A DNA stretch of 35,725 nucleotides, taken from a virus. The notes below the pieces were generated by a model. It was not told the origin of the DNA. It saw only the letters and a program-made list of their open reading frames with translations, and made no database searches. The stretch covers positions 1 to 35,725 of IMG/VR virus record IMGVR_UViG_3300021057_000011; one strand, written 5' to 3'. Shown piece by piece: positions 4,055 to 13,583 of the stretch; the first letter of the stretch is position 1; the number at the start of each line of letters is the position of its first letter. The position numbers were made by a program, and so were the translations under genes.

Positions 4055-4503
4055 GCGTTGCTTTCCTCTCTGTGATTTGTGCCGCCGGGCTGGGTCTGCT
4101 GCTGGCCCGAGGGCTGAGCTTCTTTTGGGTCATCGCCCTTCAGCAAGCCCAGGTAAGTCTGATACTGCTCTCTCAGCCCCCTGTGCCGCTCTATATTTGC
4201 GGGCGTCGTGGTAATGCTCACCTCGCAGTAGAACGCTTCAAGTAGTTGATTGGCTGCTGCAAACCGTGCCTGATAATCGCCGGCCACCTTGCGGGCGTGG
4301 TCCTGGCCAAAGAGAGCCTCGTCCCGTTCTCGCTCCAGGGTCCGCACCAGGGCGAGCAGTTCCCGGCGATACTCCCAAAAATGATTGGTCATCTGCCGCT
4401 TGAGTTGAGCATCGCCAAGAGCAGACGGAGAAGCATTGATCCATTGCTTCTCCAGATCTTCGAGCATGATGATGTAGTCGGGGGTGGGGGTGGGGTTCGT
4501 CAC
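4051..4503 (-). CDS. Hypothetical coiled-coil protein
   Basis: 150 aa, coupled. Confidence 0.7.
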   Translation of the reverse strand: MTNPTPTPDYIIMLEDLEKQWINASPSALGDAQLKRQMTNHFWEYRRELLALVRTLERERDEALFGQDHARKVAGDYQARFAAANQLLEAFYCEVSITTTPANIERHRGLREQYQTYLGLLKGDDPKEAQPSGQQQTQPGGTNHREESNA

Positions 4504-8989: not shown

Positions 8990-9318
8990 GCAGCCCTCCG
9001 TTCTCGTTGCCGCGCAATAAAGGAGTTCAGCAGCTGATCGGCCTGGGTGAAGAAACTTTCCAGCAACGTCTCGGTGGAGGTGTAGTCCAGATCGAAGGGT
9101 CGGCGACCCGTGATGGCGCTGAACCCGCTGGCCGAAATATCCATATCGCACTCCGACAGCTCACTCGTATGGCGGTAATTCCCCATCGGCCGGCTGACCG
9201 TGATCTGCAGGCTTCCAGGGTGGATAGATATCCGAAGCTGCATCTCCCGCTTCAACCCCGCGCGGAAGATCTTGCGGCGGAGCTTCTTGGCCCGTTTGTA
9301 AAGGCGGCCGAGGTTCAT
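8986..9318 (-). CDS. Hypothetical protein, AKKLRRKI-leader family member 2
   Basis: LYKRAKKLRRKIFRAGLKREMQLRI. Confidence 0.7.
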   Translation of the reverse strand: MNLGRLYKRAKKLRRKIFRAGLKREMQLRISIHPGSLQITVSRPMGNYRHTSELSECDMDISASGFSAITGRRPFDLDYTSTETLLESFFTQADQLLNSFIARQRERRAA

Positions 9319-9770
9319 TTCCTATGCCGCCCCACAAGGATTAGAAGCAATGCATCCGCGGCATCGTGGAGGCTCTTGAAGCCAGGCTCCAAATCCTCAG
9401 AGTCTGCCAGCTCATACCCGTACCCGCCGTATTCCAGTTCAAACGCGCGACCCAAATAAGTATTTGCCTCTGAAATCAGGGGCGCATCATGGTCCCCAAT
9501 ATCATAGAGCGACATCTGAAAGGCGTTACCCAAGGAATCCTCATCTGTCTGCCACATCCAAGATTCCGGCTCCTCGTACCAACGAATAGGTTCGTCTACT
9601 ATTATCTCCTCCCGAATCGGGTAGCGAGACAAATCCGCAGGACCTGCCAAGGTCTCCTCTAGGAAAGCGAAAATCGCGGGAAAAAGCGAACTCAACGCAA
9701 CTCCAGGCGGCAGCTCTATCTTTTTCAACTCCTCGAATTCCCGCTCTAGGTTTTCACGGTTGATCGTCAT
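9315..9770 (-). CDS. Acidic hypothetical protein
   Basis: Start MTINRENL; D/E-rich. Confidence 0.7.
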   Translation of the reverse strand: MTINRENLEREFEELKKIELPPGVALSSLFPAIFAFLEETLAGPADLSRYPIREEIIVDEPIRWYEEPESWMWQTDEDSLGNAFQMSLYDIGDHDAPLISEANTYLGRAFELEYGGYGYELADSEDLEPGFKSLHDAADALLLILVGRHRK

Positions 9771-10068
9771 GATCCTGTCCTTTCTTCTGCGCCAGGGTGG
9801 CTTCGACCAGGGCGAAAATGAGGGGGAACTCTGACTGATCCCGTCCATCATCATCCAGGGCAGTAATCAGCTCCCACTTCTCTTTCTCCATCGCCGCAAA
9901 ATCAACGTCTGAATACACGTCCAGGACCCACTGCCACTCGTCCTCCAGCGGAGGTGAACGACGGGCAGACAGTTTCTCGCAGCGGCTGCACGTTGCCACA
10001 CCCGTGGCGATCGGGGGCGGGGGTTTCATGTCTTGAATGTGCCCGCAGTGGGGGCATTTGGCTTTCAT
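9754..10068 (-). CDS. Zn-ribbon protein with acidic C-terminal module
   Basis: MKAKCPHCG...GVATCSRC; ATGA overlap. Confidence 0.7.
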   Translation of the reverse strand: MKAKCPHCGHIQDMKPPPPIATGVATCSRCEKLSARRSPPLEDEWQWVLDVYSDVDFAAMEKEKWELITALDDDGRDQSEFPLIFALVEATLAQKKGQDHDDQP

Positions 10069-10499
10069 GCGTCCGCCCTGCCGCCAAGATAGCCGTTCTC
10101 TTTGAGCAACCCGACCACCGTGGCGATGTTGCCGGCATCGGGATTTCCGGTCCACAGCTCGCGGCTGATCTGAAGCAGCAAATTATCCAGCCGCTCGACC
10201 TTGGCTTCCAGTTCCTCGGGGGTGTCTTCGTGCTTCAAATCGGCGAACATGTCCTCGACCGAAGCATAGGACGTCAGGCCAATGCCCTTGTCACTGTCCT
10301 CGAGAGCCTGGATCGTTTCGGCATTGGGTTCGTGGGAATGGGGGCAAAGGACTATCCAGTTCCACCCGTGAGGTTGGGGATCGACAAAAGGATATTCGTG
10401 ACAAGTGGGACACTGCCGGCGATTCACCACAGCTGTAGGGGTCGCGGGAGTAACATCGATATCAGAGACGGTATCACAATAGGGGCATTGGGCTCTCAT
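10065..10499 (-). CDS. Zn-ribbon protein carrying a DinJ/RelB-like antitoxin C-terminal segment and a coiled coil
   Basis: CPYC...CPTC then EPNAETIQALEDSDKGIGLTSYASVEDMFADL. Confidence 0.7.
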   Translation of the reverse strand: MRAQCPYCDTVSDIDVTPATPTAVVNRRQCPTCHEYPFVDPQPHGWNWIVLCPHSHEPNAETIQALEDSDKGIGLTSYASVEDMFADLKHEDTPEELEAKVERLDNLLLQISRELWTGNPDAGNIATVVGLLKENGYLGGRADA

Positions 10500-10723
10500 G
10501 ATTGCTGTTTCCTTTCGTCGACTTGCCGCAGGGCCTCTTTCAGCATCGCTTCAACTTCGTCCAGGGTGTCGCCGGCATAGAGGGACTGTGTGTAATACCC
10601 TTGTGCCGCGATTTGACTGTCTTGGTCGGCAGTAATCTGGAGCTTCCAACAGAGGAGTTCAGATTGCCCCTCGGGTTGAACGGAATACAGGGAGACGTGG
10701 GTCATAGGCTTCCTCACATGCAT
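10496..10723 (-). CDS. HicB-like (antitoxin N-terminal fold) small protein
   Basis: WKLQITADQDSQIAAQG...LYAGDTLDEVEAMLKEAL fits the beta-beta-beta-G.T.EE....KEA pattern. Confidence 0.5.
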   Translation of the reverse strand: MHVRKPMTHVSLYSVQPEGQSELLCWKLQITADQDSQIAAQGYYTQSLYAGDTLDEVEAMLKEALRQVDERKQQS

Positions 10724-10772
10724 AGGGATCTAGTTTAGCCCCTCGAAAGGGGCAAGAGGTATCTGGACCCTC

Positions 10773-11144
10773 TCAGGGGGCAGAGGGGCCTTCTTGGACC
10801 TCTGAGAGGCTCTGGTGGGGCTCCCGGATCGCTTCGAAAAGGACCAGCAACAACCGGTAAGCTGTATCCGGATCGCCGGTCATCTCTCGCAGGTACTCGG
10901 TCCAGTAAATCGGGTCAAAGGGCAGCTTCTCCCGCCGCCTGAGGCGATAATGGCGCCAGAGCGACTTCCACTGCACCCGGGCCCGGTAGGACAGTTCCGC
11001 AGGGTCAGGTCCAACGGGTTTGATGATCACCGCCCGCCGCGGCTGGATAATGCCAAACCCACGGTGCGCAATCCAGGTAGGAACGACATAGGACAGTTCG
11101 GGGGGCTTTGAAATGGCGAATTCGCGGGGCAAAATTAAATTCAC
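10773..11144 (-). CDS. Hypothetical protein
   Basis: GTG start with TAGTG coupling and GGAGG RBS. Confidence 0.6.
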   Translation of the reverse strand: MNLILPREFAISKPPELSYVVPTWIAHRGFGIIQPRRAVIIKPVGPDPAELSYRARVQWKSLWRHYRLRRREKLPFDPIYWTEYLREMTGDPDTAYRLLLVLFEAIREPHQSLSEVQEGPSAP

Positions 11145-11398
11145 TAGCGCCCCTCCTTGAGATCGGTGATCAGCATAGCCCAAAAGCAGACGGCTTCCCG
11201 CTGCTCATAGGGCATGTTCTTCGTCACCGGCTGAAAGGCCTGCATCTGCGCACGGAAGTAGGCCTCCAGCATCGTGTCGTAATTCGCTTTGCTGCTGGCG
11301 GCGCAATAAATATCCTCGCAGTGCATCAGCTTCTCGCGGGTGAGAAGGTGGGGGAATTTGCGGTGGTACTCCGCCAGGGCGTTGGGGGTCAGGCTCAT
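11144..11398 (-). CDS. Hypothetical protein
   Basis: 84 aa, coupled. Confidence 0.7.
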   Translation of the reverse strand: MSLTPNALAEYHRKFPHLLTREKLMHCEDIYCAASSKANYDTMLEAYFRAQMQAFQPVTKNMPYEQREAVCFWAMLITDLKEGR

Positions 11399-11613
11399 AT
11401 CAGCTCCCAGGAGGGATCTTCAATCCGCACGATGAACCTTGCGACTTTCTCCGCGGAGGCTTGAAACACATCCATCGGCATAGCAGGTAACTCATCCAGC
11501 CGGCGGGAGGGGGTGTACCTGCATTTCTGACAGGTCGCCACCCCGTTGAAGACGGTTACCGCAGAAGGTTCACCGCAGTGCGGACAATCCAGGTAAATAG
11601 GGGTATGTCTCAT
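11395..11613 (-). CDS. Zn-ribbon protein, paralog of 9754..10068, with possible DUF1778/TacA-like tail
   Basis: CPHCG...GVATCQKC...SRR; tail DVFQASAEKVARFIVRIEDP. Confidence 0.65.
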   Translation of the reverse strand: MRHTPIYLDCPHCGEPSAVTVFNGVATCQKCRYTPSRRLDELPAMPMDVFQASAEKVARFIVRIEDPSWELI

Positions 11614-11909
11614 ACCAGGTCCCAAAACTCCTCATCAACCATGTTCACAAATTCAGGCGGGCAGTCTTCCATCCCCGCCGCCAACGTATGGTAGAAATCG
11701 TGCAGGATCTGCAGCTGCTCGGCTTCGGTATAGCGCAGCACAGGTTTTGGCTGTGGCGCAGGGGTGGCGATGTACTCGGCAGGGGTGGACCGCTGCGACG
11801 ACTGGACCATCTCCTGCAGCCGCTTCAAGGTCGCCGGATGGGTGGTGTGCGCGTCGATAATGTGCCCCTCGGAGGGGCGGTAGGTCCGGGCAATCACGCA
11901 ATGCTCCAT
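11610..11909 (-). CDS. Hypothetical protein with acidic amphipathic C-terminus
   Basis: 99 aa; ...PPEFVNMVDEEFWDLV. Confidence 0.7.
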   Translation of the reverse strand: MEHCVIARTYRPSEGHIIDAHTTHPATLKRLQEMVQSSQRSTPAEYIATPAPQPKPVLRYTEAEQLQILHDFYHTLAAGMEDCPPEFVNMVDEEFWDLV

Positions 11910-12850: not shown

Positions 12851-13203
12851 GAGACTTTCTCCAGCTCAGCGACCTCGTGGATTTCCCGCTTGATGCTGCA
12901 GCCGACCTGCCACTCTTTGAGGCAAAGCTCCCCCACGGGCGGATCGTCCTGGATGCGGGCGAGAAAGGCCTGCCGGGAATCGGTCACGAGCAGGGCCCGG
13001 ACCAGGGTGAGCAGAACAATGGAGTAGGGGGTGGTGGGATCGTGGCGCAGGAGGATTTCCTGCTGCCGCTGAAAGGCCCGCTGGGCGGTGTGGGCACTCA
13101 TGCCGAGGCCCACCTGGACCTTTTCCACCAGGCAGAAGGTCCAGTCCTGCTGGACGAGGTAGGCCTGGAGCAGGTCGACGAGATCATGACGCAGCGTACT
13201 CAT
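12847..13203 (-). CDS. Hypothetical protein
   Basis: 118 aa, ATGA overlap. Confidence 0.7.
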   Translation of the reverse strand: MSTLRHDLVDLLQAYLVQQDWTFCLVEKVQVGLGMSAHTAQRAFQRQQEILLRHDPTTPYSIVLLTLVRALLVTDSRQAFLARIQDDPPVGELCLKEWQVGCSIKREIHEVAELEKVS

Positions 13204-13583
13204 ACCCGAAGGATTTCCGTCTCAAAACGGGCGTGCAAGTGGTCGACATAGGCCTGCGGCTCAGCCGAAGAGATGGGGCGCTTCGCAGCCAAATAGGCCC
13301 GTAAGATGGCCAGATAGTTGATGGCGTCGAGGAGGGTGTCGTCGAGGGATTCGTCCGTCACCGCCGGCGCTTTGCCGCCGATCAAATTGCTCAGGCGGGC
13401 GAACTTGTCGCATAAGCGAACCATGATGCCGGTTTCCACGGAGGTGAGGTCCAGGTGGCCGACCAAGCGGAAGTTCTTGAAGGGGTCGGAATCGGCCCCG
13501 TAATCCTGGTTCTTCTTGGTGACGATGGCGAGGGCCTCGGCGTAGGTCTTTTCTAAGTGCTGGACGAATTGGGTTCGGTTCAT
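13200..13583 (-). CDS. Nucleotide modification associated domain 1 (DUF1599/Nmad1, MazG-like) protein
   Basis: KKNQDYG...PFKNF...GIMVRLCDKFARL.NL...DESLDDTLLDAINY signature. Confidence 0.85.
   Translation of the reverse strand: MNRTQFVQHLEKTYAEALAIVTKKNQDYGADSDPFKNFRLVGHLDLTSVETGIMVRLCDKFARLSNLIGGKAPAVTDESLDDTLLDAINYLAILRAYLAAKRPISSAEPQAYVDHLHARFETEILRV

Follow-up and report, generated by a model that had tools for sequence, protein, structure and literature searches.

A zinc-ribbon protein with an orphan DinJ-type toxin-suppression module in a virus record: a candidate antidote to host YafQ-family toxins

Gene B (protein P0001) of the virus record IMGVR_UViG_3300021057_000011 from IMG/VR, which stems from an uncultured phage, encodes a small protein that, on the evidence of its sequence, carries a bona fide DinJ-type C-terminal toxin-suppression module at residues 50–90. 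The stretch of DNA analysed here, referred to as the window, is 35,725 nucleotides long and corresponds to bases 1–35725 of this 101,449-base record. In B the module stands behind a four-cysteine zinc ribbon, while the ribbon-helix-helix (RHH) head that is usual for antitoxins of the DinJ/RelB type is absent, and there is no partner toxin gene in the record. We think that B is probably a trans-acting, head-swapped orphan antitoxin directed against a host toxin of the YafQ family, i.e. a counter-defence 'antidote'. The gene and its parts are as follows.

10065–10499, minus strand: gene B, 144 amino acids; zinc-ribbon head, DinJ-type module and helical C-terminal extension
10395–10499, minus strand: head of B, residues 1–35; four-cysteine zinc ribbon (CPYC ... 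CPTC) from a pattern scan
10230–10352, minus strand: module of B, residues 50–90; assigned as a DinJ-type C-terminal toxin-suppression module
10068–10229, minus strand: extension of B, residues 91–144; helices 94–116 and 125–134 in the AlphaFold2 (AF2) model, no relatives in the exhaustive search

The module is made up of a Cys-Pro-x-Ser-His lead-in, a PN-x-ET helix, a GIGLT loop and a final amphipathic helix. An exhaustive phmmer search with B against 1.84 billion representative proteins gave 12 relatives (E 5.6e-8 to 1e-3). All 12 match residues 50–94 of B only, ten of them at their own C-terminal end, and since every relative is confined to this segment the module is the only part of B that has relatives. 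Among them are several Pfam RelB members with an RHH head and one protein with a ParD-like head. The module segments can be aligned gap-free across 41 columns with P, N, G and G invariant; B retains all of these positions as well as the terminal amphipathic helix. Against a hidden Markov model (HMM) made from the relatives' segments, with B itself excluded, B scores 81.2 bits (E 9.4e-25), and none of the other open reading frames (ORFs) of the phage rises above noise. The module profile matches E. coli DinJ (PDB entries 4Q2U and 4ML0) at E 4e-8 and 2.3e-7, with residues 56–89 of B aligned without gaps to residues 52–85 (of 86) of DinJ. A gap-free match of one tail in this region to the DinJ C-terminus had been proposed earlier in a reading made from the sequence alone; the tail in question is that of B, and both the profile match to 4Q2U/4ML0 and the 81.2-bit score bear the proposal out. 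Single-sequence searches of B against the PDB did not return DinJ, which was recovered by the profile alone.

Structure prediction agrees with the alignment. In the AF2 model of B the module has a predicted local distance difference test (pLDDT) score of 84–95 and forms a helix-loop-helix (helices 60–70 and 81–89). Foldseek with this model gave four rows only, all of them DinJ chains from E. coli or Vibrio cholerae DinJ–YafQ complexes, at E>1. The head is modelled with low confidence because there is no alignment depth, and in profile searches it gives weak matches to the Zn_ribbon_4, NrdR and PaaD ribbons, all below cut-off. B as a whole is below the threshold of Pfam RelB (PF04221), and there is no match to RelB or any other RHH family in B at E<=1. 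A word-index protein search with B returned B alone, and scans of viral contigs gave no relatives of B or of its neighbour, gene A.

It has been shown previously that the C-terminal domain of DinJ suppresses YafQ by direct engagement and that removal of the last nine residues abolishes complex formation (PMC12301738). With the DinJ of the E. coli DinJ–YafQ system (4Q2U, 4ML0; RelB, PF04221) B shares the toxin-suppression segment, including the terminal amphipathic helix needed for YafQ binding. Unlike DinJ, B has a zinc ribbon in place of the RHH head, no yafQ either adjacent or elsewhere in the genome, 54 extra residues and a location in a phage operon of ORFan genes.

There is a further peculiarity in the lead-in. 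A Cys and a His are conserved before the invariant Pro-Asn in the subfamily to which B belongs (10326–10352, B residues 50–58), the other members being P0003, P0007, P0008, P0009, P0010 and P0012. Generally the lead-in has the form Cys-Pro-x-Ser-His, in P0009 and P0010 it is CxxC...His, and E. coli DinJ has no Cys/His lead-in. Possibly this element is a small knuckle that binds metal or makes contact with the toxin.

The absence of a toxin was followed through the whole 101-kb record. Profile searches for YafQ, ParE/RelE, RelB, TacA, HicB-like proteins, HicA (PF07927) and GNAT proteins gave no match at E<=10, and the YafQ HMM, for which positive controls score 77–113 bits, found nothing in the record at maximum sensitivity. 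The sequence-only reading had noted that neither a toxin gene nor an RHH domain is present, and the profile searches confirm this for YafQ, ParE/RelE, HicA and GNAT toxins and for a RelB-type head. The gene directly downstream of B is the zinc-ribbon gene A and not yafQ or another toxin gene of the RelE fold. With the module present and both the RHH head and the toxin missing, B is thus a DinJ-type toxin-binding segment standing alone.

Elsewhere the module is tightly linked to yafQ. When IMG/VR was scanned with a degenerate DNA pattern for the module, 16 loci came up, each of them a true module according to the HMM, and a YafQ-family gene lies directly downstream in 15 of the 16. The same holds for the metagenomic and genomic loci L003, L013/L014, L011, L077, L078, L086 and L089, where yafQ is again directly downstream; the toxin at L003 (3321–3590) is YafQ/RelE by NCBIfam, and that at L013 spans 4234–4497. 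At L081 a shorter YafQ match of 73 residues follows the module. When the DNA pattern was relaxed, viral contigs gave only false positives beyond two known loci, and a pattern specific to the B subfamily had no viral matches. Note that the census was made by word-indexed and pattern-based searches, and diverged modules escape such searches. At one locus (L010:1896–2045) the YafQ homologue downstream of the ParD-head module protein P0009 is reduced to its C-terminal half, and this looks like a decaying pair.

Such linkage raises the question whether B could be the antitoxin of an addiction or exclusion module borne by the phage, the toxin being either unrecognised (for example gene A) or encoded in the unsequenced part. 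B overlaps its downstream gene by 4 bp, as is the case in dinJ-yafQ operons, CheckV puts the completeness of the record at about 80%, and most module genes in IMG/VR are paired with yafQ. We nevertheless find this explanation highly improbable: A, an acidic protein with a zinc ribbon and a probable paralogue of B, is not a basic toxin of the RelE fold, no YafQ, RelE, ParE, HicA or GNAT protein is found across 101 kb, and the RHH autoregulator is lacking.

The module is not restricted to RelB-type proteins. A profile search for longer module carriers gave 68 proteins, most of which are RelB-type and are named DinJ in their source; the remaining ones have ParD-like or HicB-like heads, DUF7336, DUF3310 or heads that could not be assigned. 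Some of these are found in phage surroundings. Specifically, P0028 has an unassigned head of 85 residues followed by the module, and its gene is located between those of an AAA_24 ATPase and a single-stranded DNA-binding protein (SSB) on a 41-kb contig that also encodes a holin-like gene and a K1-lyase tailspike. P0008, with a head of 109 residues before the module, lies among co-oriented small ORFan genes between MazG and amidoligase. The IMG/VR locus L066 has a bare module gene of 36 residues, and in P0068 a DUF3310 domain, which is a phage-associated family, is followed by the first half of the module. There is no YafQ match in loci L102–L104, L005, L006 and L066. Several module carriers are toxin-less in phage contexts; such examples are few. 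That a toxin-less module recurs on varied carriers in a number of phage contigs suggests that a strategy rather than an accident lies behind it.

This distribution also bears on a different explanation, namely that B is a neutral or decaying chimera, in which illegitimate recombination joined a dinJ-like fragment, without any part in neutralising a toxin, to a zinc-ribbon paralogue, or that the module was co-opted for another partner such as a phage protein. B is a singleton with no full-length relatives, its head and extension are orphans, and orphan module genes without yafQ are present in bacterial toxin-antitoxin islands as well. In addition, the lead-in of the B module (10335–10346; residues 52–62) resembles the first zinc knuckle of the neighbouring gene C (11554–11586; residues 10–20), with 7 of 12 positions identical; it is possible that this is microhomology through which the module was grafted onto the ribbon paralogue, or it could be due to chance. 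Against such an origin, the module is undamaged, its score is as high as those of genuine antitoxins, and the invariant P, N, G, G and the amphipathic helix are kept. The ORF of B is intact and translationally coupled, and the occurrence of the module on other carriers in independent phages points to selection. We therefore regard a chimera or a co-opted module as unlikely.

Several other arrangements of the module were observed. The metagenome contigs L089, L081, L088, L090 and L082 encode DinJ-type antitoxins of 66–69 residues, in which a short basic N-terminus replaces the RHH domain; at L089 the RHH-less antitoxin has a full-length yafQ downstream. The yafQ neighbours at L089 and L081 mean that RHH-less antitoxins occur within apparently normal pairs too. 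Module genes of 78–80 residues (P0012 type) are found at L085:2311–2553 and L087:1419–1655, beside a hicA-hicB-like pair and integrase fragments and without yafQ. P0002 and P0005 have two tandem copies of the module each; the head of P0005 is of the RHH type, and downstream of P0005 at L011 lies a fragment of yafQ. P0022 is a hybrid of two antitoxin families, in which a HicB-like N-terminal domain (PF15919, E 4e-11) is fused to the DinJ-type module.

B belongs to a minus-strand block with the gene order F-C-E-D-H-B-A-G. Its other members are listed here.

11610–11909, minus strand: gene F, ORF in the block
11395–11613, minus strand: gene C, 72 amino acids; zinc-ribbon head like that of A (GVATC motif); the short tail has WELI at its end
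11144–11398, minus strand: gene E, ORF in the block
10773–11183, minus strand: gene D, ORF in the block
10496–10723, minus strand: gene H, 75 amino acids; the gene earlier described as 'HicB-like'
9754–10068, minus strand: gene A, 104 amino acids; zinc-ribbon head and acidic tail
9315–9770, minus strand: gene G, ORF in the block

The sequence-only reading had placed B in a wider scheme, in which A, B, C and H form a multi-target arsenal: a duplicated zinc-ribbon carrier with various captured antitoxin tails (DinJ-like, TacA-like and others), accompanied by a HicB-like protein. The heads are in line with part of this scheme. All three minus-strand ORFs A, B and C have, as had been described, an N-terminal CPxC...CxxC ribbon, with CP(H/Y)C as the first knuckle. 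A CxxC-N(8-30)-CxxC pattern occurs in 8 ORFs of the 101-kb record and three of these (A, B and C) fall within one 1.9-kb stretch. The longer motif GVATC..C....RR, reported as common to two of the three, is indeed present in A and C together with the RR, with a spacer of 5 residues and not 4. In Smith-Waterman comparison against shuffled sequences the heads score z 9.6 (A–C), 7.7 (A–B) and 2.0 (C–B). Pairwise alignments give E 5e-7 for A–C and 1e-5 over the whole lengths for A–B; B–C alone is not significant. When the 824 six-frame ORFs of the genome are compared by BLAST, both B and C have A as their best match. Judged by the heads, B and C each likely have A as a tandem paralogue; since high scores are obtained between any two CxxC ribbons, paralogy through A is only moderately supported.

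The tails of A and C do not fit the scheme. A TacA/DUF1778-like tail had been proposed; for the tail of A there is no Pfam match of this kind at E<=1, and a six-frame search with PF08681 gave nothing at E<=10. More generally, the tails of A and C match none of the Pfam antitoxin families and do not score with the module HMM, and hhalign against the module profile gives probabilities of 0.3% for A and 1.1% for C. The tails were described as acidic and each different: all proteins of the block are acidic, but the tails are not clearly different, A and B showing a weak likeness and the motif WELI being shared. More specifically, the tail of A gives a marginal alignment with the module region of B (z 2.1, p 0.044), and WELI, which ends C, occurs in the middle of A. 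The tail of A was also considered as a diverged copy of the module and rejected, the pairwise p of 0.044 being marginal and both the HMM and hhalign speaking against it. No relatives of A or C were found in a word-indexed collection of 5.8 billion proteins or in viral contigs, and a search with an A+C profile returned A and C only. In Atlas, A has a poor model (pLDDT 0.49) with generic zinc ribbons and phage RNHCP clusters as neighbours, none of which comes up to the threshold for a lead. A 15-residue hydrophobic-acidic motif of A's tail (9757–9830) recurs in G (9315–9770) with 10 of 15 residues identical; its E within the genome is 0.9, which is not significant alone.

The assignment of H as HicB-like is not supported either. 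There is no match to PF15919 (E<=1; E<=10 in the six-frame search), and neither Atlas nor Foldseek points to HicB. The AF2 single-sequence model of H has three strands and a helix at moderate confidence (pLDDT 67); Foldseek with this moderate-confidence model against the PDB gave no HicB and nothing at E<=0.001. The feature and structure neighbours of H in Atlas are unrelated to HicB. That H is HicB is not demonstrable.

What remains of the arsenal is its core idea of a zinc-ribbon carrier with a captured toxin-neutralising peptide, which is supported for gene B (module present, no RHH head, no toxin) and not for A and C. The heads of A–C and A–B are alike, the genes are clustered in one operon, all the proteins are acidic and B carries a true antitoxin payload. 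Moreover, the module is fused to many heads across metagenomes, so shuffling of carrier and payload does occur in nature. The part of the proposal concerning several toxin families is not upheld, however: the tails of A and C carry no TacA, RelB or other antitoxin signal and partly resemble each other and that of B instead of being distinct payloads, and H gives no HicB signal by Pfam, Atlas or Foldseek. An arsenal made of A, B, C and H appears very improbable. By their sequences A and C look like paralogues with respect to the heads, with tails to which no function can be assigned. The combination of carrier and payload holds for the DinJ-type payload across phages, and this is the one payload supported within the present phage. 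According to a broader proposal, phages would time and again have joined the DinJ-type YafQ-binding peptide to unrelated carriers without DNA binding (zinc ribbon, DUF3310, DUF7336, helical heads), or would use it bare, as a portable weapon against toxins; in the present phage the ribbon carrier would in addition have been duplicated, and the diverged tails of A and C would neutralise other host toxins to give a multi-target arsenal. Taken as a whole, we consider this improbable.

If B is an orphan antitoxin acting in trans, the following course of events can be envisaged. B would be produced from the polycistronic block, which consists of small ORFan genes. The four-cysteine zinc ribbon would have replaced the RHH head, which in DinJ/RelB-type antitoxins serves for DNA binding and dimerisation, the C-terminal segment for toxin suppression being kept. 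The ribbon may serve as a compact folded handle in the place of the RHH, and binding to an operator would then be lost. The module would wrap around a host YafQ-family toxin, a ribosome-dependent mRNase (mRNA interferase), in the manner of DinJ and hold it inactive while the phage shuts down host expression. The target might be a toxin released from a DinJ–YafQ pair upon collapse of host expression, or it could be a component of a defence system. Blocking the toxin would presumably prevent abortive infection and so benefit the phage.

Some points weigh against an action of B on a host YafQ-family toxin. We know of no demonstration that DinJ–YafQ itself defends against phage. Specificity to their own toxin is the usual case for type II antitoxins (PMC11825919, discussion), and a matching target must consequently exist in the host. 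The module of B is not C-terminal, as 54 residues follow it, and the terminal helix of DinJ is the main contact with the toxin. Proteins with tandem modules and other extended forms nevertheless indicate that a free C-terminal end is not obligatory. Since about a fifth of the genome is missing from the record, a toxin gene could sit in that part.

Orphan antitoxins of phages are not new as a kind. They are established for DarG-like NADAR enzymes, namely the NADAR/DarG1-like AdfN of T4-like phages, and type II antitoxins have been considered hard to recognise as orphans, being unstructured and toxin-specific (PMC11825919). The cyanophage S-CREM1 has genes annotated as YefM, TacA and MazE (PMC9964418). 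The genes of S-CREM1 are whole antitoxins by annotation only, and the proven phage cases are either enzymatic (DarG-like) or non-homologous mimics. T4 Dmd and AdfA are further phage orphan antitoxins or antitoxin mimics. Like these, B is an antitoxin-derived or antitoxin-like gene without a toxin, which presumably neutralises a toxin of the host. As a phage gene product with homology to the part of an antitoxin that neutralises the toxin, and unaccompanied by a cognate toxin in the record, B answers to the description of an orphan antitoxin. It differs from the other cases in that all it has of a type II antitoxin is the intrinsically disordered segment that wraps the toxin, on a foreign carrier.

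Portable neutralising tails are also known from bacteria. In bacterial type II antitoxins DNA-binding heads and neutralising tails are mixed and matched, and the Panacea domain is an example. Domain-shuffled bacterial antitoxins carry the same module as B behind RelB, ParD-like and HicB-like heads and short basic N-termini. Where the flanking DNA suffices to judge, the bacterial forms with RelB-type heads, ParD/CopG-like RHH heads or short basic heads mostly keep yafQ, whereas B and a few phage forms have neither the partner toxin nor a recognisable DNA-binding head. In the open-access literature we found no account of phages with a DinJ-derived module that lacks the RHH head. The earlier statement that the architecture is undescribed is therefore plausible for the head-swapped type II form, and too broad for phage orphan antitoxins as a kind (PMC11825919, PMC9964418).

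Regarding the genomic context, the GC content is about 58% and almost all long ORFs are on the minus strand. No tRNA genes were detected. Phage-like families that can be recognised in the window are GP88 and DUF2786/DUF7168, together with a weak match to RuvC. Assignment of a host through PolA was attempted and abandoned, as the top matches among cultured phages are at most 31% identical and their hosts are mixed. In the protein collection, the contig given for B, A and C measures 111,536 bases, which is longer than the 101,449-base record, so a fuller genome exists. The block F-C-E-D-H-B-A-G consists of tightly packed small ORFan genes encoding acidic proteins, none of which attains a threshold in Pfam, PHROG or NCBIfam. 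At most junctions the genes overlap by 4 bp (ATGA). B has a ribosome-binding site of the AAGGA type, and the ATGA overlaps couple its translation to that of the neighbours. The coding strand of the block has no matches resembling promoters or terminators. Such a block of small coupled ORFan genes looks like an early-gene block. Synteny could not be used for its interpretation, because the 44 viral loci that share the neighbouring gene at 13200–13583 (127 amino acids) have no homologue of any block gene and no module.

A large part of the immunity against phages consists of toxin-antitoxin pairs, and proven answers of phages to them are few. If B is indeed an orphan antitoxin against a host YafQ-family toxin, its architecture would provide a signature by which genes acting against toxin-antitoxin systems could be recognised from sequence in the dark matter of phage genomes, and the module profile can be used directly for such searches. 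It would also imply that toxins of the YafQ family act against phages in nature, and B would offer a minimal transferable inhibitor with which the anti-phage role of YafQ could be tested.

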